From the NCBI GenBank assembly GCA_034433615.1, contig DAOUAJ010000382.1, positions 1-14,292 on the forward strand: a DNA stretch of 14,292 nt, in the 5' to 3' direction. Made by a program: the position numbers and the translations under genes. This DNA is from Anaerolineae bacterium. Its GTDB lineage: Bacteria; Chloroflexota; Anaerolineae; DUEN01. The notes beneath the pieces were generated by a model. It ran no database searches and had not been told where the DNA came from. It saw nothing but the letters and a program-made list of their open reading frames with translations. Positions 1 to 14,292 of the stretch are shown here, one piece after another (the stretch's first letter is position 1; each line of letters starts with the position of its first letter).

Positions 1-2480
1 GCTGCCGTGTGAGACGCCGTGCCGGATGCAGTATCTCGATCAGCACGCACTTCCAGGTAGACAGGCGCTTCTTCTCCGGCTTCCAACCGGATTTCTCCTG
101 CCTGGCTATCTGCGGGTGGAAAGGGAGGTTCCAGATAAGAGATCACTCCCACAGCCGTGGCCGAGAAGCCGGGCAGATCGTACAAGGTAAACGATTGTCC
201 TGGCGTCAACGCCACACGCCCCTGTAAGTCGTAGTACACGCCGTCCACCCAGGCGTCTCGTACCTTGTCCGTGATGACGTAACGCACCCCTGCCAAGTCA
301 AGTATACGACTGGCGGGGATCTCTTGCAATTGTTCGCGCAGCCGGCCGTCGGGAAGCAGGCGATCAGGGGTGATGAACAGGGTCTGGAACCAGGTATATC
401 GAGCCAGTGGCAGGATACCGCCGTCGTAGCCATCAATGCTGGGCAAGTGCAGCAGCAATGGCAGATTAGGAGCGATGATCTCCTTCAGTTTGGCTGCGAC
501 CACATAATCCCGCAAGCCAGCTTCATCCAGGTCATCGGCCAGGAGCTGGCGTATCTCTGGCAAATCGCCAGGATCGTAGTGAATGCCTGACATGGAGAGG
601 AAACGGCCAGGGGCAGCCAGCAGGTGAGCCGGCGCCGTGCGCAATGAGGTCACCGCCTGGGGAGCGGAAGGGTGGTTGAAATCCAGCGGTAGCGCTGCCG
701 CCAATAATTCACCGTAGAGTAGAAAGAGGACCAGCGGGCCGACCAGCGGGCGTAGCCGGACGGGCCACCGCTCCTGCACCAACAGACCAGCCGTGACGAC
801 CGCCAGCCCTGCCCACGCAGTGAGGGTAGCCCGGCCAGGCCACTGTTGAAGCACCAACAACGTGACCAGCAGCACACTTCCCACTCCGGCCAGGATTTGG
901 CGCCAGCGGTAAGCCATGATCCAGTCCCAGACGATGGCCATGCGAGCCCGCAGTTGCAGAGCATCAGGCATGATCAGCCGATCCAGCCCTATCCCGGCCA
1001 ACAGGGCGATGGCCAGCGCGTACCAGGCCAGCCAGCGCGGGGGCACACGAAACAGCCCGAATCCGGGGATCACTTTGTAGAACAAGGGATAGAGGGGTGT
1101 GTAGCCGCCTAAGGCCAGGAGCAGCCCGCCCGTGGCCAGCGTCGCCAGAGGCACCTGCAACGGGTGGTGCTCCGATCGCGGGGAGCCTGTCCCTGGTGTC
1201 TGTCCTGAAACTCGCCCCCCCGCGATGGGCGAAGGTCTCCTGACCGAGCCCTTTTTCGCCTCGGTCGGGAGACCTTCAGCGATCAAGGGGACGAGGGACG
1301 AAGGACGAGGGACGAGGGAGTGGGTTTTCATCGGCCGTGGCGCCGCCCGCGGCGGCATGGGGAACTGTCCTGAAAAAGGGACGAGGGACGAGGGACGAGG
1401 GACGAGGAAGCGGGTGTTCATCGGCCATGGTGCCGCCTCCGGCATGGACATCTGTCCTGCATTTTGGCCTGACGGCCAGCCTGTCTTGGCTGTCAGGCCG
1501 GGGAGCAACCCTAGCCCGGCCAGAGTGAGGCCCAGGATGCCCACGTAAGCCAGGTACTCGGAGAAAACAGGGGTGCCGAACGCGGCTTCGGGCTGCATCG
1601 CGTAAGGGGGCAGCAACGCCAGGAGCAGCATGTTCGGTTTCAATGAGAAGGCTATCGTCTCCAGGAAGCCCAGCCCGCCTGCGCGAATCGAGAGCCTGGC
1701 CAGTTCCATCGTCGGCAGAATCTGGACCGCCGAGATCGCGACAGCCAGAACCACGGCCACAGCCAGCGATCCCCATCGGGTGAGTAGTACGCCGGCCAAT
1801 GATCGAGCCCTTTGCCGCTGGCGAACAGCTTCCCAGAGCGGCCCGGCCAGCGCGTACACCCCTAATCCGGCCGTGGAGATATACGTAGCCTGAGTGTGTC
1901 CGGCCAGCAGTTGCAGCGCCAGCACCAGCGCCAGTCCCGCCAGTGGCAGCAGCCTGGCCCGTATGGTCGAGCCACACGCGACGTGATCCAGCAGAAGTAA
2001 AGCCAGAGGAAACCAGGCTAACGCGTTAATTTGGTTGATCTGGCCGGCATGCCCGGCCAGGTGCCCGCCCAGCGCATAGATCAACGCCGCCGCCAGCGCG
2101 CCGGTGCGGCTCAGACCCAGGTGGCGTGCCAACGCGTAAGTGAAGCAGCCGGCCAGCCAGATGTGCAAGACCAGTGACCAGATGAGCGCACGTTCTGGAC
2201 GCAGCCAGATCAATGGCCAATGTAGTGGGTAGAAGACGGCGGCCTGAGGGTTGGCCAGAAAAGGGACACCCAGGAAGAGATACGGGTTCCACAACGGCAA
2301 ATGACCTGCCCGCAGCGCCTCCGCGCGATAGGCCCAGTAGGGCGTGAAATAGGTGAAGGCGTCGCCCCGGGCCAGCACCTTATTCGTCAGAGCTGCGTGG
2401 CGAAAAGCCCATACGCTAAGCGCCAATAGCCCCAGCATGACCAGCAATGGTCCGACGCCCTGGCGTACTCTAGCGGCCAT
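1..2480 (-). CDS. Large polytopic membrane protein, YfhO-like (GT-C-type glycosyltransferase family); partial, 3' end lies beyond the window start (826 or more codons)
   Basis: Hand translation of the minus strand from ATG 2480-2478 runs to position 1 with no stop in frame (checked in 60-nt blocks). It is not in the ORF track because it has no stop inside the window. Listed ORFs 2026..2292 and 1276..1977 are out-of-frame shadows of it. The N-terminus (MAARVRQGVGPLLVMLGLLALSVWAF...GDAFTYFTPYWAYRAEALRAGHLPLWNPYLFLGVPFLANPQAAVFYPL) recalls the YfhO-family N-terminal motif from memory. Many TM helices are followed by a soluble C-terminal domain of roughly 230 aa (nt 1-700), which is the YfhO architecture. 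The ATG overlaps the stop of the upstream PMT_2 gene (ATGGCCGCTAG). The family call needs HMM confirmation. Confidence 0.65.
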   Translation of the reverse strand, partial: MAARVRQGVGPLLVMLGLLALSVWAFRHAALTNKVLARGDAFTYFTPYWAYRAEALRAGHLPLWNPYLFLGVPFLANPQAAVFYPLHWPLIWLRPERALIWSLVLHIWLAGCFTYALARHLGLSRTGALAAALIYALGGHLAGHAGQINQINALAWFPLALLLLDHVACGSTIRARLLPLAGLALVLALQLLAGHTQATYISTAGLGVYALAGPLWEAVRQRQRARSLAGVLLTRWGSLAVAVVLAVAISAVQILPTMELARLSIRAGGLGFLETIAFSLKPNMLLLALLPPYAMQPEAAFGTPVFSEYLAYVGILGLTLAGLGLLPGLTAKTGWPSGQNAGQMSMPEAAPWPMNTRFLVPRPSSLVPFSGQFPMPPRAAPRPMKTHSLVPRPSSLVPLIAEGLPTEAKKGSVRRPSPIAGGRVSGQTPGTGSPRSEHHPLQVPLATLATGGLLLALGGYTPLYPLFYKVIPGFGLFRVPPRWLAWYALAIALLAGIGLDRLIMPDALQLRARMAIVWDWIMAYRWRQILAGVGSVLLVTLLVLQQWPGRATLTAWAGLAVVTAGLLVQERWPVRLRPLVGPLVLFLLYGELLAAALPLDFNHPSAPQAVTSLRTAPAHLLAAPGRFLSMSGIHYDPGDLPEIRQLLADDLDEAGLRDYVVAAKLKEIIAPNLPLLLHLPSIDGYDGGILPLARYTWFQTLFITPDRLLPDGRLREQLQEIPASRILDLAGVRYVITDKVRDAWVDGVYYDLQGRVALTPGQSFTLYDLPGFSATAVGVISYLEPPFPPADSQAGEIRLEAGEEAPVYLEVRADRDTASGTASHTA
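1287..1440. repeat. Two ~60-bp direct repeat copies (1287-1347 and 1378-1440) inside the YfhO-like CDS. Each begins with tandem heptamers GGGACGA: four copies with one mismatch at 1288-1315, and three perfect copies at 1378-1398
   Basis: Seen directly: gggacgagggacgaaggacgagggacgagggagtgggttttcatcggccgtggcgccgcc versus gggacgagggacgagggacgaggaagcgggtgttcatcggccatggtgccgcctcc. On the coding (minus) strand the heptamer reads CTCGTCC, and each repeat copy encodes the peptide (N/K)T(R/H)(F/S)LVPRPSSLVP. Confidence 0.8.
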
Positions 2481-4182
2481 CAAGTTTCGTTCGCTCAATA
2501 CGATACACGACGAATGAAAGGCTGCCGTCCCCCCGATGCGTCTCGAAGCGGGGGATCATGACGATCCCGCGAGCAGCCAGCGCCGCCTGGGCCGCGTCGC
2601 GCTCAGCCAGGCGCCAACCAGGAAAAACGATGTAACGTACGATCTGAGGAGGACCGTCGGCATCGGCCACCAGCGCCTCCGTGGAGTCGTAATAACGAAA
2701 GTGGAAAGGCACATCATAGAGGTAGTAACGCCAGTGCCAGCCCAGCCAGCGATGGTATAACACCGCGCCTGAAGGCAGTTCCGATCTGAGGAAAGTGGCC
2801 ACCAGGTCAATGCCATCATACGCGCCATGGTCGGAGCCGACCGGGAAACCGCTTTTCGCTGCCGTCACGGCCGGGCTGGCCAGCATCAAGGTGAACAGGG
2901 CTGTCATCGCCAGGACGCCGGCGCGCCGCGCTGCCGGACCGAACCGCTGTTCCCAGCCGCGCAGGGTCGCTTCTGCCAGAGTCAGGACAACCCGCGCCCC
3001 CAGAAGCGCAACGATCGGCGCCAGGGGAAGTAAGTAACGATCCCAAATCTGGAAGTTGACCACGATGTGCAGCGCCATGTAGACCAGCCCGTATCCCAGT
3101 AGAATCAGATCGGTTCTCCAGGCCGTGGGCAGTACCACGGGGGAAGAAGGCCTGTTTTCAGCCTGCGGAGGCAGGCTTCGCAAAGGTAGTAGCCGCGACT
3201 TCCAGTCGCCCAGCTTCTGTCGCCATGCCTGCCACGCCAGCCCCGGCAGCCCGATGGCCAGTAGCGCGTTCAGCCAGGGCGAGCCGGTCAGATAACTCAG
3301 CCACGGCAGCCACTTGATCGCGCGGGCGGGCCACTCAGCGAGAGATGTCAGCCAAAGCCCGCCGTACGAGATGGCACTCTGCGCCAGGAACCCAGGGCGG
3401 TCAGGCGGCAGATAGCGCCAACTGTCCCACTGGATTGCCTTCCAGATCGGATAGCCCACACCCAGAACGAAGAGGCTGGCGGCAATCGGCGCACTCCAAC
3501 GCCCAGGCAACGTTGGTCCCAGGGCAGCAAGCCGGGCGATAACCGACAACCGGTAACCGAAGAGCAGATGTCTCCGCGTCTCCGTATCCTCGCGTCCTCG
3601 CGTCCCCGCGTCTCCCCTTCCTGAGATCACCCATCCCAGCCCCAAAACCAGCGGCAGGAAGAAGATCCCCTGCTGCTTGGTGATGGCGGCCATTCCGATT
3701 CCCAGCCCGGCCAGACCCCAGCCCCCGTACGCCGCCGCCAGGCAGCCAGCCAGCCCGAAGAAAATCATGAGGGGATCGGTGAAGGCGGTGGGACTGAACA
3801 GGATCGCCATAGGCGATGCGGTGAAGAGGGTCGTCGCTACCCAGGCGGTGTGCTCCCCATACAGCCGGCGGGCCAGCGCGTAGACGAGCGGGATGCTGAG
3901 AAGGCCGGCCAGCAGCCCCGGCAACCGGGCCACTACCTCACTGGGACCGAGCCAGGTGAAAAAGTGGGCCAGGACGTACAGGAAAAGGGGCGGCTTGTCT
4001 ACCGGCACCGTGCGCAGCATGACATCGCGCTGGGTACTGATCAGCAGCCCCCAGGATGCATAGAGGGCCTCATCTTGGTGAAATCGGTGCGCCCACAGTG
4101 GTGGCAGGCGTAGTAACAGCCCGGCCAGCATCATGCTGGCCAGCACCAACTTGTCGCGGAGAATCAACCCAGGCGTAGCCAT
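2470..4182 (-). CDS. PMT_2 / ArnT-like GT-C membrane glycosyltransferase (GT39/GT83-type). Start assigned to ATG 4182; the ORF-track TTG start at 4275 is the alternative
   Basis: Family hallmarks: a DE motif in the first extracytoplasmic loop (RFHQDEALYASWG), the KPPLFLYVLAHFF motif (KPPL-Y-W in ArnT/PMT_2), ARLPGLLAGLLSIPLVYALARRLYG, roughly 11-13 TM helices, and a C-terminal soluble domain of about 130 aa. ATG 4182 places TM1 (LVLASMMLAGLLL) about 12 residues in. TTG 4275 directly abuts the GT2 stop. Neither start has a strong SD. Confidence 0.75.
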   Translation of the reverse strand: MATPGLILRDKLVLASMMLAGLLLRLPPLWAHRFHQDEALYASWGLLISTQRDVMLRTVPVDKPPLFLYVLAHFFTWLGPSEVVARLPGLLAGLLSIPLVYALARRLYGEHTAWVATTLFTASPMAILFSPTAFTDPLMIFFGLAGCLAAAYGGWGLAGLGIGMAAITKQQGIFFLPLVLGLGWVISGRGDAGTRGREDTETRRHLLFGYRLSVIARLAALGPTLPGRWSAPIAASLFVLGVGYPIWKAIQWDSWRYLPPDRPGFLAQSAISYGGLWLTSLAEWPARAIKWLPWLSYLTGSPWLNALLAIGLPGLAWQAWRQKLGDWKSRLLPLRSLPPQAENRPSSPVVLPTAWRTDLILLGYGLVYMALHIVVNFQIWDRYLLPLAPIVALLGARVVLTLAEATLRGWEQRFGPAARRAGVLAMTALFTLMLASPAVTAAKSGFPVGSDHGAYDGIDLVATFLRSELPSGAVLYHRWLGWHWRYYLYDVPFHFRYYDSTEALVADADGPPQIVRYIVFPGWRLAERDAAQAALAARGIVMIPRFETHRGDGSLSFVVYRIERTKLDGR

Positions 4183-4275
4183 TGGCTCGATACTGTCCAG
4201 CACAAATCGCGTGCCGGGCCAGGTGCCGATTTCAATATGGAAGCCCGGCTCAGCACGGCAAATCCGCCAAAGCAA

Positions 4276-5283: not shown

Positions 5284-5868
5284 TCACCCTTCGCCCACCT
5301 GATGGGCCAGAATGATGGCCCAGGCGACCTCCTTCATAGGTTTACGGTTGTTCATGGACATCTTCTGAATTTTACGGAACGCCTCGGCCTCCGACAGCCC
5401 CTGGCGGTCCATGAGGATGCCTTTGGCACGATCCACTAACTTGCGCGTCTCCAGCGCCTCTTGCAGATCGTCTACCTGCTTTTGCATCTCCATGAACTCA
5501 CGAAAGCGGGCCAAAGCTACCTCGATAGCAGGAGCCAGGTCGGTCTCCCGGATTGGCTTCACCAAGTAGCCGGTCACACCAGCCTCGCGCGCGCGCGCCA
5601 CCAGGTCGTGCTGACTATAGGCGCTGAGCAGCAACACCGGAGCGATGCGCTCCTCCGTCAGAATCTTAGCCGCCTCGATGCCGTCCATATCAGGCATCTT
5701 GATGTCCATGATCACGATATCCGGCTTGAGCTCTCTGGCCAGATTCACGGCACTGCGTCCGTCGCCGACCTCCCCCACGACCAGGTAACCCAGGTTGGTT
5801 AACATCTCCCGTAGATCCAATCGGATCAATGCCTCATCGTCGGCAATCACGACCCGAGTCTTTTCCAC
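5284..5868 (-). CDS. ANTAR-domain response regulator (receiver plus ANTAR RNA-binding output; PdtaR/AmiR/NasT-like)
   Basis: Receiver motifs: VVIADDEALIRLDL, IVIMDIKMPDMDGIEAAK, VTGYLVKP. The C-terminus QEALETRKLVDRAKGILMDRQGLSEAEAFRKIQKMSMNNRKPMKEVAWAI is a typical ANTAR helix bundle. The SD GGGAGG lies 9 nt upstream of ATG 5868, 6 nt after the kinase stop. Confidence 0.85.
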   Translation of the reverse strand: MEKTRVVIADDEALIRLDLREMLTNLGYLVVGEVGDGRSAVNLARELKPDIVIMDIKMPDMDGIEAAKILTEERIAPVLLLSAYSQHDLVARAREAGVTGYLVKPIRETDLAPAIEVALARFREFMEMQKQVDDLQEALETRKLVDRAKGILMDRQGLSEAEAFRKIQKMSMNNRKPMKEVAWAIILAHQVGEG

Positions 5869-5874
5869 GGCTTA

Positions 5875-7452
5875 TCACCCTCCCAAAGGCAATTTTGGAA
5901 AAGAGACCTCAGCGACAACGCCATCCTTCTGATACAAAGAGAAGGTCCCTTTGAGATCGTCTCGAACCAAGGTTTGCACAATCTGCAGGCCCAAAGTTCG
6001 AGCCTGCTCCAACGAGAATCCCTCCGGCAGGCCGTGTCCATTGTCCACGATGCGGATCACGACCCTGTTCGCGATGTTGGTCAGATCGGCCTGAATGTGC
6101 CCCTCTTCCTCGCCATCAAATCCATGTTCCAGGGCGTTCAGGAGCAATTCGTTAAAAACCAGCGCGCAGGCAGTGGCCTGATCTTTGTGCAGATAAATGC
6201 TAGGGCCCCTCAACTCAATGCGGATGCGACAACCCGGCGCTAAAGTGACTTGCTCGGTCTGGCTGATGATGCGCTGAAACACGTCACGAATGTTGATGTG
6301 CTGCCCTCTGTCATGGGATAGATAATCATGGATGACGGCTACACTCAGGATGCGATTAATGGCCTCTTCCAGTTCGTGGCGGGCCTCCTCCGTCTGACAT
6401 CGCCTGGATTGCATACGCAGCACCGAAGCGATGTTTTGCAAGTTGTTCTTCACCCGATGATGAACTTCCTGCACCATCGCCCGTTGCACGTTCAGCTCTT
6501 GCTGCCTGTGCCGCGCTTCCGTGTCATCATGCACCAGGATCAATGCGCCCGCTTGGCGTCGGTAATTCGCCCGTCGGGATAGACGGTCACCGATGGCCGC
6601 AGGCAGCGGCCACGGAGGATCATAACGCAGCAGCGGGATCACCTGGCGAATCCAGTAGCGAGTTTGCTCTTCCCCTTCCCATTGCTGGCATAGCCCGGTT
6701 CGCAGCGCCGTGGCTACCAGCTCGTCGTCCCGAGTCTGCAGATCGCCTATCCACTTGCCGCGGAGATCTTCTAAATAACCCAGGTGACGGTACAGGTGGG
6801 TGGCAATCCCGCTTAGATAAGTGATGCGTCGTTGTAAGTCGGTGACGACGATCCCATCCCATTCGCCGAATGGTCCTAAAGCTTTTGCACCCCGCAGATC
6901 ACCCCGTATAGCCATCTGTTGAACCCAAGAAAGGGCCCGCTGGAAGACGCGAGAACGGCGGCGGTGACGCTCTCGTTCGATCAGGTTGGTCTCGATGGCT
7001 AACGCGGCAATGATCTGGCCGCGAGGGCCATAGATGGGGTAGACTTCTTGAATGACAGGGGCATCGCCCTCGACCACTCGTTGATGGTGGCCAGATACCC
7101 CATCGTTTAAAGCGCGCAAGACGAGAGGTTCGTCCGCCTGCTTGACTGTTTGCCCCAGCAACGAGTTGGGATGGAGGGGAGAGATAGAACGCGGCTGTGC
7201 CTGGGCGATGATAGCTGCCGAACGAGCGTTCAGGCGGCCGTAGAGAAGCACATCCGCCCGGCTGACTCCGGCCGTGATCGCCAAACCATCCTCCACCTGC
7301 TGGAGAAACTGAAGATCCGCATCACTCAAGCCCTGACAGCTTTTGACGATCGGGTGCATATGAGTCCATAGGCTACCAAGCCAGGCTCCCATGCCTGGGA
7401 TTCTCTTTATCAAGTGCAACATACAACAAAAGCCGACGGCATTGCAAGCCAT
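5875..7452 (-). CDS. Cytosolic sensor histidine kinase, HisKA_2 plus HATPase_c with N-terminal GAF/PAS-like sensor region (PdtaS-like). Start uncertain (7452, 7392 or 7359)
   Basis: The H-box EVHHRVKNNLQNIASVLRMQ is the HisKA_2 signature. The ATPase motifs NELLLNALEHG and DNGHGLP are present. No TM segments. The gene is immediately upstream of and cotranscribed with the ANTAR regulator. None of the three candidate ATGs has a convincing SD. Confidence 0.8.
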   Translation of the reverse strand: MACNAVGFCCMLHLIKRIPGMGAWLGSLWTHMHPIVKSCQGLSDADLQFLQQVEDGLAITAGVSRADVLLYGRLNARSAAIIAQAQPRSISPLHPNSLLGQTVKQADEPLVLRALNDGVSGHHQRVVEGDAPVIQEVYPIYGPRGQIIAALAIETNLIERERHRRRSRVFQRALSWVQQMAIRGDLRGAKALGPFGEWDGIVVTDLQRRITYLSGIATHLYRHLGYLEDLRGKWIGDLQTRDDELVATALRTGLCQQWEGEEQTRYWIRQVIPLLRYDPPWPLPAAIGDRLSRRANYRRQAGALILVHDDTEARHRQQELNVQRAMVQEVHHRVKNNLQNIASVLRMQSRRCQTEEARHELEEAINRILSVAVIHDYLSHDRGQHINIRDVFQRIISQTEQVTLAPGCRIRIELRGPSIYLHKDQATACALVFNELLLNALEHGFDGEEEGHIQADLTNIANRVVIRIVDNGHGLPEGFSLEQARTLGLQIVQTLVRDDLKGTFSLYQKDGVVAEVSFPKLPLGG

Positions 7453-7541: not shown

Positions 7542-7618
7542 TGGTCGGGGCGGGCGGATTTGAACCGCCGGCCACTTGAACCCCATTCAAGTGCGCTACC
7601 TGGCTGCGCTACGCCCCG
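7542..7618 (-). tRNA. tRNA-Pro (anticodon GGG), 77 nt including the encoded CCA
   Basis: Folded by hand: acceptor CGGGGCG/CGCCCCG (C1:G72, typical of bacterial tRNA-Pro), D-stem GCGC/GCGC, anticodon stem CTTGA/TCAAG with loop A-T-GGG-G-T (G37), T-stem GGCGG/CCGCC with T-loop TTCAAAT, discriminator A, CCA. Confidence 0.9.
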
Positions 7619-7902: not shown

Positions 7903-7942
7903 GGCCCATGCGGGCCACAAGCGGCCCATGCGGGCCACAAGG
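7903..7942 (+). repeat. Two tandem 20-bp direct repeats GGCCCATGCGGGCCACAAG(c/g). Each contains a short hairpin (GGCC-CAUGCG-GGCC or GGCCC-AUGC-GGGCC) and ends 5 nt before the SD
   Basis: Seen directly. 7903-7921 and 7923-7941 are identical 19-mers. They lie in the 5' leader between P2 and the AGGAGG at 7947-7952. Confidence 0.7.
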
Positions 7943-10864: not shown

Positions 10865-10883
10865 GTTGTCCCGAAAATAGCAC

Positions 10884-10932
10884 TCAGCGGTCAGCGATCA
10901 GCCGTCAGCGATTAGCGATCAACGATTCGCGA
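10884..10932. repeat. Degenerate tandem heptamer array, 7 copies on the plus strand: TCAGCGG TCAGCGA TCAGCCG TCAGCGA TTAGCGA TCAACGA TTCGCGA. On the downstream gene's (minus) strand this reads nnGCTGA x7
   Basis: Seen directly. It occupies the short intergenic gap between the epimerase stop (10919-10921) and the GT4 start (10864), and overlaps the last 4 codons of the epimerase. Confidence 0.75.
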
Positions 10933-11851
10933 TTAACTCGCGAAAGAACTCGACCGTGCGCGCGAGTCCTTCTTTCAGGCTGACCGTAACCTCCCATCCT
11001 AACTCCCTCTTGGCCCTGCTGGCATTCAGATAAATCCGGAAGACTTCCCCCTGTTTGGACGGACCATAATGAGCATCGCCGGAGTAGCCGGTAGCCGCCT
11101 TCAGCTCAGCGAAAATGGTATTAATGTCAGTCGGGACGCCCGAGCCGATATTGTAGACCCCTTCTCCTCGATCCAGGGCCAGCACATTGGCACGGGCGAT
11201 GTCACCCACATACACGAAGTCCCGCTGCTGCTCTCCGCTGCCGTTGATCGTGGGCTGCTTGCCCCGTAGCATCAGGCCGGTAAAGATGGCCACGACGCCG
11301 GCCTCACCAAGCGGATCCTGGCGCGGCCCGTAAACGTTGGGGTAACGCAAGCTGACGTAAGACAGTCCGTAATTATGCCGATACAGATACAGGTAATGCT
11401 CGACCGCGTGCTTACTCGCGCCATAGGGATCCAGCGGGTTGATAGGGTGATCTTCAGTGACCGGCAGAAATTCGGGTTCGCCGTACACTGCGCCTCCTGT
11501 CGAGGCGTAGATGAAACGCTGACACCCGTATTTGCGCGCCATTTCCAGCAGGAGAATGGAACCCAGGACGTTCACAGCGCCGTAGGCGATAGGCTCTTCC
11601 ATGGATTGGCGCACGTTAGCCAGCGCCGCTTGATGGCTGATCACTTCCGGACGTTCGGCAGCGAACACTTCTTCCACTTTCTCCTGCTGTCGGATGTCAA
11701 CTTTACAGAACTTTGCCTTCGGGTTCACATTCTCCCACTTGCCTGTGACCAGGTTGTCAATCACAACGACGTCGTGTCCAGCCGCAATGAACGCGTCCAC
11801 AACGTGGGAGCCGATGAACCCCGCGCCGCCTGTCACCAGAATCTTACTCAT
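10919..11851 (-). CDS. NAD-dependent nucleoside-diphosphate-sugar epimerase/dehydratase (GalE-like UDP-hexose 4-epimerase family), 310 aa from ATG 11851
   Basis: Rossmann motif MSKILVTGGAGFIGSH. Catalytic residues S in ASTGGAVYG and YxxxK in YGASKHAVEHY. The SD AGGAG lies 6 nt upstream of ATG 11851. The track's upstream extension (MRMDDSDD...) falls inside the predicted 5' UTR, downstream of the promoter. Confidence 0.85.
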   Translation of the reverse strand: MSKILVTGGAGFIGSHVVDAFIAAGHDVVVIDNLVTGKWENVNPKAKFCKVDIRQQEKVEEVFAAERPEVISHQAALANVRQSMEEPIAYGAVNVLGSILLLEMARKYGCQRFIYASTGGAVYGEPEFLPVTEDHPINPLDPYGASKHAVEHYLYLYRHNYGLSYVSLRYPNVYGPRQDPLGEAGVVAIFTGLMLRGKQPTINGSGEQQRDFVYVGDIARANVLALDRGEGVYNIGSGVPTDINTIFAELKAATGYSGDAHYGPSKQGEVFRIYLNASRAKRELGWEVTVSLKEGLARTVEFFRELIANR

Positions 11852-13012: not shown

Positions 13013-14017
13013 ATGGCGAAGGCAAAGATAACAATCGTAGGTCTGGGGCTTGTAGGTAGCTCCATCGGGATGGCTCTGCGTCGGGGCGAGCGCGATTTTG
13101 AGGTGACCGGCCACGACCGGGATCCGAAGGTGGCAGCAGCGGCTCATAAAGCCGGCGCGGTGGATCGCACAGAGTGGAACCTGATTCACGCGTGCGAAAA
13201 TGCATCTCTCATCATCCTGGCCTTGCCGATGATGGCGATTCGCGAGACAATGGAGGCTATCGCCAGTTATCTCAAGCCTGGCTGCGTCGTCACTGATACA
13301 GCCAGCATCAAAGTGCCCGTGCTGCAATGGGCTCAGGAGATTTTGCCGGATACGGTTCACTTCGTCGGCGGTAACCCGGTAATGAACAGCCCAGAAGGCC
13401 TCACAGGGGTCGAGGCGGCCTCGGCAGACCTGCTGCGCGGGGCCATCTACTGCCTGTGCCCTACGTCCACCACTGCCCCTGCAGCCGTACGGGTAGCCGC
13501 AGACCTGGTCAGCCGGCTCGAGGCGCAGCCACTCTTCCTGGACGCTGGAGAGCATGATGGCCTGGCAGCGGGCGTGGATCACCTGCCGGCCGTCCTGGCG
13601 GCTGTCCTCCTGGAAACGACGGCCCTGACTGCTCCGTGGCGGGAGATGCGCAAGCTGGCGGGGGGACAATACCAGGCCGTCACCCATTTCGTGTCCGGCG
13701 ATCCTGCCACCTATTGCGATGCTATCCTGGCCAACCGTGAGAACGTCGTCCGTTGGATCGACACCTTTATCGCCAACTTGCAACAGTGGCGTCAAAGAGT
13801 GGCAGATGGTCGGGGTGATGTCCTGGCAGAATCCTTCCAACGGGCGTTCGAGGCACGCGATCAGTGGCAACGGGAGAAGGCCGAGGGCCGCTGGGATGAA
13901 CGGGAGCGGATCAGCATGGAAGAAATCGGCGGTGGCTGGCGTGGGCTATTGGGCATCAGGGGGCGGCCTCACCAACCGGAAAGGACGGGAAGCAAGAGAG
14001 GTGAGAGCTATCGGTGA
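13013..14017 (+). CDS. tyrA: Prephenate/arogenate dehydrogenase (TyrA family), 334 aa
   Basis: N-terminal Rossmann motif KITIVGLGLVGSSIGMAL with HDRD. The TyrA-type core IILALPMMAIRETMEAI...GCVVTDTASIK. The SD GAAGGGA lies 3 nt upstream of ATG 13013. The track's 12689 start is an upstream extension that overlaps the M50 gene. Confidence 0.8.
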   Translation: MAKAKITIVGLGLVGSSIGMALRRGERDFEVTGHDRDPKVAAAAHKAGAVDRTEWNLIHACENASLIILALPMMAIRETMEAIASYLKPGCVVTDTASIKVPVLQWAQEILPDTVHFVGGNPVMNSPEGLTGVEAASADLLRGAIYCLCPTSTTAPAAVRVAADLVSRLEAQPLFLDAGEHDGLAAGVDHLPAVLAAVLLETTALTAPWREMRKLAGGQYQAVTHFVSGDPATYCDAILANRENVVRWIDTFIANLQQWRQRVADGRGDVLAESFQRAFEARDQWQREKAEGRWDERERISMEEIGGGWRGLLGIRGRPHQPERTGSKRGESYR

Positions 14018-14054
14018 TCAGCTTTCAGCCAGCCTGCTGATAGCTGAAAGCTGA
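14018..14054 (+). other. Perfect 12-bp stem hairpin TCAGCTTTCAGC, 13-nt loop, GCTGAAAGCTGA, immediately after the tyrA stop. No U-tract
   Basis: Seen directly. Its 3' arm forms the first units of the heptamer array at 14034-14077. Confidence 0.55.
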
Positions 14055-14077
14055 CCGCTAACTGCTGAAGGCTGACA
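14034..14077 (+). repeat. Tandem heptamer array nnGCTGA x6 (ctGCTGA taGCTGA aaGCTGA ccGCTaA ctGCTGA agGCTGA), ending 20 nt before ATG 14098
   Basis: Seen directly. It is the same motif, period and orientation relative to the downstream gene as the array at 10884-10932. Confidence 0.75.
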
Positions 14078-14097
14078 GTTAACAGGAGGAAAATCCC

Positions 14098-14292
14098 ATG
14101 CTTGAGTCTCTTTCTCACGCCCGGGTGGGACGTTCCCGGCGCATCTCCAGCTACGACGTCACCGGTCGCAACCGCGACGCCTGGCCGGTGGAGGCCGGCG
14201 AGACGAAGACGCTGGCCGACATCCAGGGTGCTGGCGTCATCCGGCATATCTGGTTCACCATCGCCTGCGATTCACCGCCGCCGGAGGACTCC
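14098..14292 (+). CDS. 5' end of a protein-coding gene (65 codons to the window edge), possibly DUF2961/GH172-like
   Basis: The SD AGGAGG lies 9 nt upstream of ATG 14098. The frame is open to the window edge and is missing from the ORF track because it has no stop. SSYDVTGRNRDAWPVEAGETKTLADIQGAGVIRHIWFT resembles the DUF2961 N-terminus from memory, with low certainty. Confidence 0.55.
   Translation, partial: MLESLSHARVGRSRRISSYDVTGRNRDAWPVEAGETKTLADIQGAGVIRHIWFTIACDSPPPEDS

Follow-up and report, generated by a model that had tools for sequence, protein, structure and literature searches.

To our knowledge, intergenic heptamer arrays have been noted since the STRRs of cyanobacteria and their function has never been established. 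In Geobacter metallireducens, the "class 3 predicted global regulator binding sites" are 8 pairs of arrays with five tandem MTYCTGA units each (Aklujkar et al. 2009, PMC2700814, Fig. S5); as to function, the authors guessed at a global regulator (PMC2700814). Direct repeats of TAACTGA are found in Beggiatoaceae, cyanobacteria and some Bacteroidetes (MacGregor 2015, PMC4679880). Besides the cyanobacterial STRR heptamers, (GGGANTN)n and GGGGA(T/C)T arrays are described in Xanthomonas and Nostoc (Rehm et al. 2015, PMC4692102).

The arrays described here can be assigned with high confidence to this known class of intergenic heptanucleotide arrays (STRR, TAACTGA, MTYCTGA of G. metallireducens). They have a strict 7-nt period and at least three to four copies of the unit, and they occur as many dispersed, mainly intergenic copies, two of them within 14 kb. 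Their unit is none of the described ones (TAACTGA, MTYCTGA, STRR1-3, GGGAATC); CTGA alone is common to it and to TAACTGA and MTYCTGA. The literature was searched for a GCTGA/TCAGC heptamer and no description of one was found.

The window is the whole stretch of DNA that was analysed, 14,292 nt from an Anaerolineae bacterium; all coordinates are those of the window and strands are given in brackets. The gene upstream of the element, tyrA (13013-14017, +), encodes a prephenate/arogenate dehydrogenase of 334 aa (Pfam PDH_N, 9e-28; PDH_C, 2e-15), and an identical 334-aa protein, P0121, is present in the sequence collection. Its stop codon, TGA (14015-14017, +), lies within tcGGTGA, a heptamer that resembles a unit but shares its phase with no other element. 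The stop-proximal 5' arm, TCAGCTTTCAGC (14018-14029, -), begins 0 nt after the stop and consists of two inverted cores (TCAGC tt TCAGC). The forward array (14034-14075, +) consists of six NNGCTGA units: ctGCTGA taGCTGA aaGCTGA ccGCTaA ctGCTGA agGCTGA. Its spacers are ct, ta, aa, cc, ct and ag, and it contains TGA or TAA in all three frames. Units 2-3 of this array form the 3' arm, GCTGAAAGCTGA (14043-14054, +), of a perfect 12-bp inverted repeat: TCAGCTTTCAGC and GCTGAAAGCTGA are complementary at all 12 positions (100%) and lie 13 nt apart. The array is separated from the next start codon by a spacer (14076-14097, +) that carries the Shine-Dalgarno (SD) sequence AGGAGG at 14084-14089 and that can itself be read in heptad phase as caGTTAA caGGAGG. 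The downstream gene (14098-14292, +; start codon ATG at 14098-14100) is represented by its 5' part, 65 codons in translation, and runs off the window; for this 65-aa start, Pfam gave no match and a homologue search returned just two weak matches.

Most of this anatomy had been recognized in an earlier, sequence-only reading of the locus. The perfect 12-bp hairpin after the tyrA stop, its 13-nt gap and its lack of a U-tract are all borne out by the coordinates and by a terminator scan: no T-run follows 14054 or 14075, and the scan finds no site at the junction. The hairpin is indeed made of inverted heptamer units, the two TCAGC cores of 14018-14029 facing GCTGA units, and the element does lie between two genes of the same strand, from the tyrA stop at 14015-14017 to the ATG at 14098. 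Alternative pairings are also possible as proposed, in two further registers: the 5' arm pairs at 92% with 14036-14047 (6-nt loop) and with 14064-14075 (34-nt loop). Two details need correction. The position of the ATG was right, but the array ends 22 nt before it and is 8 nt, not 20 nt, away from the RBS, AGGAGG. The 13-nt length of the loop (14030-14042, +) was also right, but the loop already holds the first forward unit (GCTGA at 14036-14040). When the RNA fold across the junction was predicted, as that reading had suggested, a stable stem was obtained (14005-14110: -37.7 kcal/mol, z = -2.68), with the SD and the AUG outside the 12-bp stem. An intrinsic terminator (GC-rich stem followed by a U-tract) was considered for the tyrA junction and rejected.

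The sequence-only reading had called this element the second array of its kind in the window, correctly: besides the six units of 14034-14075, a seven-unit GCTGA array (10877-10925, -) fills the junction between an epimerase gene and a glycosyltransferase (GT1) gene, in sense orientation. Its units are tcGTTGA tcGCTAA tcGCTGA cgGCTGA tcGCTGA ccGCTGA gtGCTAt. The first unit supplies the stop codon of the epimerase gene (TGA, 10921-10919), and the array ends 12 nt before the ATG of the glycosyltransferase gene. A 7-bp hairpin, TTCGCGA gttaa TCGCGAA (10926-10944, -; from fold and sequence), covers the last epimerase codons and adjoins the array. The array itself has no significant RNA structure (z = -0.23).

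Chance is excluded as the origin of the heptad arrays in the window. The two-unit pattern GCTGANNGCTGA, with at most 1 mismatch, has 10 matches in the window against 1.71 +/- 1.31 after shuffling, and 0 of 200 shuffles reach 10. Exact in-phase core pairs number 7 (0.08 expected), and TRF gives 7 period-7 rows for the window against 0.24 +/- 0.46 in shuffles. Other repeats are present as well: GGGACGA arrays lie in frame within a membrane-protein ORF of at least 832 aa, and heptamer and octamer arrays lie within the ORF of a PMT-family glycosyltransferase.

The host is Caldilineae-like, within the Chloroflexota. Relatives were compared at both loci; L009, L010 and L011 were obtained by exact-protein look-up. 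The tyrA junction of L011 (Logan assembly, run SRR11582170) is identical to that of the window. L009 has 97.2% nt identity to the window over 5.7 kb. At the epimerase junction it has the same seven units with 3 substitutions; at the tyrA junction its sequence jumps from window position 14020 to 14255, so that it has neither the array nor the initial 157 nt of the gene that follows, an absence to be read with the reservation that L009 may be a chimeric or degraded assembly, since its downstream sequence is a patchwork. L010 (92.6% nt identity) diverges at 13999, 16 nt before the tyrA stop, and has a HEPN gene downstream on the other strand. The best match among GTDB species representatives, L001 (a Caldilineae MAG), has a tyrA of 67% aa identity with a different neighbour, no synteny and no array. 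The comparison of orthologous tyrA loci that the sequence-only reading had proposed as a test therefore goes against that reading: of the loci of three relatives (L009, L010, L001), the element is absent from 3 of 3.

Elsewhere, the element is found beside unrelated genes, in phage and metagenome contigs that number in the hundreds. An exact scan with (GCTGANN)3GCTGA gave at least 120 matches in IMG/VR viral contigs and at least 120 in a metagenome collection. Two control patterns with permuted cores, for which the viral contigs were scanned to completion, gave 49 and 63 stretches, to be compared with about 500 GCTGA stretches, a rough estimate from the finding that 6 of 25 eight-unit GCTGA loci fall among the first 120 four-unit loci listed. 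The contigs that carry the arrays are mostly of 55-65% GC among the matches listed. Density can be high: in contigs of 9-12.5 kb, arrays of at least 2 units number 29 (L095), 22 (L047) and 20 (L099, 12.5 kb). L099 is a genuine siphovirus-like tailed phage (PHROGs tape measure, tail terminator, head-tail adaptor and methyltransferases). L047 encodes an HK97-type portal, whose relatives among named phages have at most 30% identity and are otherwise metagenome sequences.

The tyrA element is thus very probably one copy of a dispersed intergenic GCTGA-heptad family and not specific to tyrA. The family can be defined with equally high confidence by a 5-nt core, GCTGA, with 2-nt spacers that are almost free, as a rule in four units, either solo or as a divergent pair, (TCAGCnn)k-loop-(GCTGAnn)m. 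It is highly likely that such heptads are abundant both in contigs of environmental bacteria and in those of tailed phages with a GC content of about 60%, the pair filling the gap from stop to start.

The positions of family members relative to genes are approximate, as genes were called with a home-made codon-usage log-odds caller that is not a validated gene finder. Pooled over both sets, 322 of 382 arrays among the matches listed are intergenic, in sequence of which about 84% is coding. Where two arrays lie within 80 nt (inverted pairs), the TCAGC array precedes the GCTGA array in 101 cases among the matches listed and follows it in 2 (viral set, 61:2; metagenome set, 40:0); the arrangement at 14018-14075 is the same. 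When both flanking genes of a pair were called, they are on the same strand in 50 of 59 cases, again among the matches listed, with a median of 11 nt between stop and pair and of 26 nt between pair and start (0 and 22 nt in the window). About half of the arrays among the matches listed lack a partner arm within 80 nt (solo arrays), and most of these have no partner core nearby. Between same-strand genes, 79 of the solo arrays listed are sense and 61 antisense (p = 0.15). The distance from array end to start codon differs strongly with orientation among the matches listed (median 13 nt for sense arrays, 62 nt for antisense arrays, p = 6e-6). In phages, the array itself often makes the start codon (GCTGAATGCTGA). 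The upstream ORF often stops on a TGA of the array, often that of unit 1-3.

Within the family, the core and the spacers behave differently. Adjacent spacers are identical in 31-35% of cases in GCTGA arrays (among the matches listed) versus 90-92% in arrays of the permuted-core controls. The low value is no artefact of ascertainment, since the control arrays come from the same kind of pattern, and it indicates that the core is held constant while the spacers drift. Spacer position 6 avoids G (0.10), and the dominant spacers are AA, TA, CC, CG and TC. Arrays of four units are the most frequent (88 of 163 in loci with at least 5 arrays, among the matches listed). Loops are heterogeneous and unrelated in sequence (2-76 nt, median 22 nt), and the number of units in one arm does not correlate with that in the other (rho = -0.05). 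When facing spacers were compared in 53 family hairpins (110 spacer pairs), 48 of 220 positions proved to be Watson-Crick pairs against 62.9 +/- 6.9 after shuffling, and 7 of the 110 pairs are fully complementary. Because family arms are not complementary outside their 5-nt cores and their lengths are uncorrelated, the continuous 12-bp stem at the tyrA junction is an accident of TT/AA spacers; what is conserved is the phased GCTGA core.

The arrays also turn over. Spacers are more alike within an array (35%) than between arrays (8.8%) and show a 14-nt superperiod, which indicates that units duplicate. Two phages, L047 and L055, are related at about 74% nt identity. At their orthologous junctions, some arrays have been gained or lost and others are kept with different unit numbers, and one element occupies the 5' end of a gene in frame; any single copy is thus dispensable. 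The contigs that carry GCTGA arrays also contain non-GCTGA arrays, 462 of period 7 versus 137 of period 6 and 153 of period 8. These many heptamer arrays with unrelated cores point to a generic process that generates heptamers. CTGA is enriched among the period-7 arrays with other cores (63 versus about 25 expected).

As a whole, these observations are best explained, tentatively, by a member of the GCTGA-heptad family that is probably a multi-site platform for a putative protein reading one GCTGA per 7 nt. A sequence-specific reader is argued for by the contrast between core and spacer, the four-unit mode, the polarity of the pairs and the recurrence in unrelated contigs. Each GCTGA would be one contact site for a putative sequence-specific nucleic-acid-binding protein, with one motif per 7 nt, and the array would be a multivalent landing pad for about four protomers.

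Action on the transcript is proposed with slightly less assurance than the explanation as a whole. The arrays are necessarily part of mRNA, since they lie inside operon-like strings of genes, supply stop codons and abut or contain start codons; these features, together with a spacing that depends on gene direction, favour a role at the RNA level. The protein would then act on mRNA at cistron boundaries, and the bound element would be the start-proximal GCUGA array. In paired elements, the stop-proximal UCAGC arm could hide the GCUGA array through pairing of the 5-bp cores. The upstream gene mostly ends 0-15 nt ahead of this arm, and ribosomes that terminate there would melt it. Some observations pull the other way. 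The SD and AUG of the window are free of the hairpin, which counts against the platform explanation, as do the gain and loss of arrays between L047 and L055 and the many other heptamer arrays on the same contigs; the 79:61 orientation of the solo arrays fits a double-stranded DNA target, or no function, better than a strict RNA-level signal.

A DNA target is the strongest rival, although it is rated as unlikely. The arrays would be operator-like: each 7-bp heptad would bind one small dimer, of the ribbon-helix-helix (RHH) or nucleoid-associated kind, and a short filament would form on intergenic DNA. The omega repressor of plasmid pSM19035 builds such a filament on contiguous WATCACW heptads, direct and inverted. 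The 5-nt core, the free 2-nt spacer, the strict 7-bp phase and the preference for four units have the look of a tandem RHH operator, and this grammar (7-bp phase, 5-nt core) would be compatible with omega-like operators of RHH type. The polarity of the pairs is strand-symmetric, and the paired heptads of Geobacter were annotated as putative global-regulator sites (PMC2700814). It is the roughly even split of solo arrays between the two orientations, with respect to the neighbouring genes, that keeps a double-stranded DNA target a serious rival. Against it stand the presence of elements at nearly all gene junctions of phage structural operons, places where an operator is unexpected, and the difference between sense and antisense arrays in their distance to the start codon, which demonstrates an awareness of gene direction. 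One contiguous filament is moreover impossible across arms that are 2-76 variable bases apart.

Somewhat less probable again is a non-adaptive by-product: heptamer-biased slippage or selfish expansion would seed arrays at GCTGA-like heptamers, and selection would remove those that damage genes. Seeds could be stop codons such as ...GC TGA or starts such as ATG CTG A, and the hairpin and the adjacency to stops and starts would be side effects, a corollary given the same low probability. A polymerase-footprint idea of heptamer-biased replication slippage is ascribed to Mrazek in a quotation (PMC4692102). It is the turnover data that keep a largely non-adaptive origin alive: unit duplication, presence or absence at orthologous junctions and the one in-frame intrusion into a gene. 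The general excess of period-7 arrays with many cores, both in the same contigs and in the window, points the same way, as do the heptamer arrays in frame inside two ORFs of the window, the lack of the tyrA array in L009 and the divergence of L010 from 13999 onwards. The difficulty lies in the arrays themselves. In ordinary heptamer arrays most adjacent spacers are identical, and in GCTGA arrays most are not; array lengths peak at four units and do not decay; the polarity of 101:2 (among the matches listed) is found although the arms are not copies of each other; the same core recurs across hundreds of unrelated contigs; and unit number at the epimerase junction is unchanged between strains 2.8% apart. 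An ordinary slippage microsatellite (SSR) was rejected for the GCTGA arrays, as their units are not near-identical and their lengths show a four-unit mode instead of decaying.

A purely structural RNA is improbable. Here the hairpin of the two arms would be an intercistronic processing or stability signal of RNase III type, as occurs in T7 early mRNAs, or a terminator or attenuator without a U-tract. The predicted stable stem at the tyrA junction and the frequent location of pairs between co-directional genes (50/59 among the matches listed) agree with this, and periodic 5-bp helices with 2x2 internal loops would resemble irregular RNase III substrates. About half of the arrays, however, have no partner arm within 80 nt with which to form a hairpin. 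Spacers are, if anything, less complementary than chance, and the lengths of the arms are uncorrelated. Opposite polarity would give a hairpin just as stable, but pairs arranged in that way are almost absent. At the tyrA junction there is neither a U-tract nor a terminator call, and the second array of the window is unstructured (z = -0.23).

Mobilization in trans of a miniature element (MITE- or REPIN-like), with the two arrays as terminal inverted repeats, is very improbable. The inverted arms do have a fixed outward polarity, and the copies are dispersed, mostly intergenic, and present or absent between relatives; but no internal sequence is conserved (the loops of 2-76 nt are unrelated), the copies are not near-identical, unit numbers vary freely without correlation between arms (rho = -0.05), the arms are not reverse complements of each other and no target-site duplication was seen.

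The least probable explanation, a locus-specific riboswitch-like switch controlling the gene downstream of tyrA, is already largely refuted by the comparative data: the alternative pairing registers and the position just upstream of the RBS are in its favour, but the element is absent from the tyrA loci of three relatives, the same element stands beside unrelated genes including phage genes, the arms show no covariation (48/220 Watson-Crick pairs against 62.9 expected), the SD and AUG are not in the stem, and Rfam gives no match at 14000-14100 or 10870-10945 even at E <= 1. The dedicated RNA switch or processing site that the sequence-only reading had thought plausible at the tyrA junction accordingly finds no support, given the relatives that lack the element, its unrelated neighbours elsewhere and arms that are not complementary; a general RNA-level role at cistron junctions, processing included, is possible. 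For annotation, it follows that such hairpins are not to be called riboswitches or terminators, and that care is called for where an array harbours the start or stop of a gene (GCTGAATG..., ...GCTGA). Four further ideas were set aside, as none predicts the polarity, the phase or the freedom of the spacers: a Chi-like recombination signal, a restriction or methylation site, pairing with the 16S 3' tail, and telomere-like addition.

The platform explanation can be set beside the systems already described. Among these, the MTYCTGA pairs of G. metallireducens appear to be the closest to the GCTGA heptads. In both, units end in CTGA and arrays on opposite strands read outward from the centre; in Geobacter, the minus-strand array (A site) has the lower coordinate in all 8 pairs, which is the polarity of GCTGA pairs. 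In the annotation this array lies 3' of the upstream gene and its partner (B site) 5' of the gene that follows, as for GCTGA. The same layout, with outward arrays from the 3' end of one gene to the 5' end of the next, is found at 14018-14029 (-) and 14034-14075 (+). Between the same-strand neighbours moaA-I and mosC-I, the B site runs into AAGGAGAGGTTCAT (SD and ATG). One Geobacter unit is even CTGCTGA. Unlike GCTGA with its free spacers, the Geobacter units have a YCTGA core with a conserved T-rich prefix; they are known as 8 pairs in one deltaproteobacterial genome, with arms about 75-115 nt apart, and are not reported in phages.

The TAACTGA repeats (PMC4679880) are likewise intergenic, in 2-6 units, mostly a few nucleotides upstream of starts and often without an SD. 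They too contain stops in every frame when read forward, occur occasionally in frame in ORFs when reversed, and are mixed with other heptamers. They differ from GCTGA arrays in that all seven positions are fixed, in that 169 direct sets are known versus 1 indirect set, and in their hosts, which are of low GC and belong to different phyla. The STRR and G-rich heptamers (PMC4692102) share with GCTGA arrays heterogeneous units with fixed and free positions, mostly four in number and intergenic, some inverted pairs, and a length and sequence that vary between close relatives. Their cores, in contrast, are G-tracts with G-quadruplex potential, of which GCTGA has none, and the taxa are different.

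Proteins that read heptads are known: HutP reads UAG every 7 nt on RNA, and omega reads WATCACW heptads on DNA. Both resemble what is proposed for GCTGA in the strict 7-nt phase, in a short core with free flanks and in several contiguous units, and omega also in a grammar of orientation. Their motifs are unrelated to GCTGA and their loci are few, against hundreds for GCTGA.

A bolder reading, considered rather unlikely, would unite the heptads that end in CTGA (NNGCTGA, MTYCTGA, TAACTGA) as the recognition code of one widespread nucleic-acid-binding system that would punctuate operons where cistrons meet, a code that phages of the same hosts would copy at nearly every junction in order to plug into the system. 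If true, this shared code would be a new layer of gene-boundary control common to several phyla. What is new here is the GCTGA-core family, with a Chloroflexota-like host and many phages, within an already known kind of heptamer array. Its regularities are sharp: constant core, drifting spacers, four-unit mode, a polarity of 101:2 among the matches listed, placement from stop to start, and a very high density in some tailed phages. They argue for a specific reader protein, and they allow clean test designs.

At the tyrA locus (tyrA, 13013-14017), a relative with 97% nucleotide identity (L009) lacks 234 nt corresponding to the GCTGA array, made of tandem 7-nt units, together with the 5'-most 157 nt of the gene that follows it, which starts at ATG 14098 (L009 5720-5761 compared with window 14018-14257). 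The L009 junction shows tcaCC/tcaGC microhomology, and a patchwork of gene fragments is found past it. The gap is either a real deletion accompanied by pseudogenisation or the product of a chimeric assembly. Synteny with a second relative (L010, 92.6% identity) ends 16 nt upstream of the tyrA stop (L010 1627-2492 compared with the window from 13999 onward); where the window has the array and the downstream gene, L010 has a gene with a HEPN domain, accompanied by a small partner ORF, on the opposite strand.

In two related phage contigs (L047 6317-6385 versus L055 6940-6965; about 74% nucleotide identity), a complete TCAGC/GCTGA pair (inverted TCAGC array, loop and GCTGA array) is present in one phage and absent from the orthologous gene of the other. 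The pair lies directly 3' of the ATG, in frame and devoid of stops; one 8-nt spacing within it puts TGA out of frame. In other viral loci, including L029 (about 6700-6870), GCTGA arrays are adjoined by different heptamer arrays. CTGACCA is the most frequent non-GCTGA heptamer in these viral contigs, and one of the non-GCTGA arrays is translated as SGVRGQG repeats.

Heptamer arrays are also found within two minus-strand ORFs of the window. The ORF 1..2498, which encodes a membrane protein of at least 832 aa with no match in Pfam, carries two GGGACGA arrays (1288-1319 and 1377-1407), each held by one of the two copies of a repeat of about 89 nt. The reading frame is kept through both arrays, which add ...LVPRPSSLVP... 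peptide segments. The ORF 2470-4275, which encodes a PMT-family glycosyltransferase, carries a CGATAAC-type heptamer array (3537-3560) and a period-8 array (GTCCCCGC; 3570-3615), which together encode the peptide ...GRGDAGTRGREDTETRRHLLFGYRLSVIA... and look like a repeat intrusion into a loop.

Two identical 20-nt units stand in tandem (GGCCCATGCGGGCCACAAGC; 7903-7941) about 300 nt from a minus-strand tRNA gene (7545-7618; Rfam, 63 bits). No connection to the arrays was seen for the ANTAR-type response regulator that adjoins a histidine kinase (5284-7452, minus strand), its ANTAR domain, an RNA-binding antiterminator domain, being assigned by reading the translation. The tyrA stop is surrounded by cGGTGATCa (14012-14020). 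GGTGATC, whose presence at this site may be a coincidence, is the exact complement of GAUCACC, the usual segment of the bacterial 16S 3' tail, which may differ in this organism.
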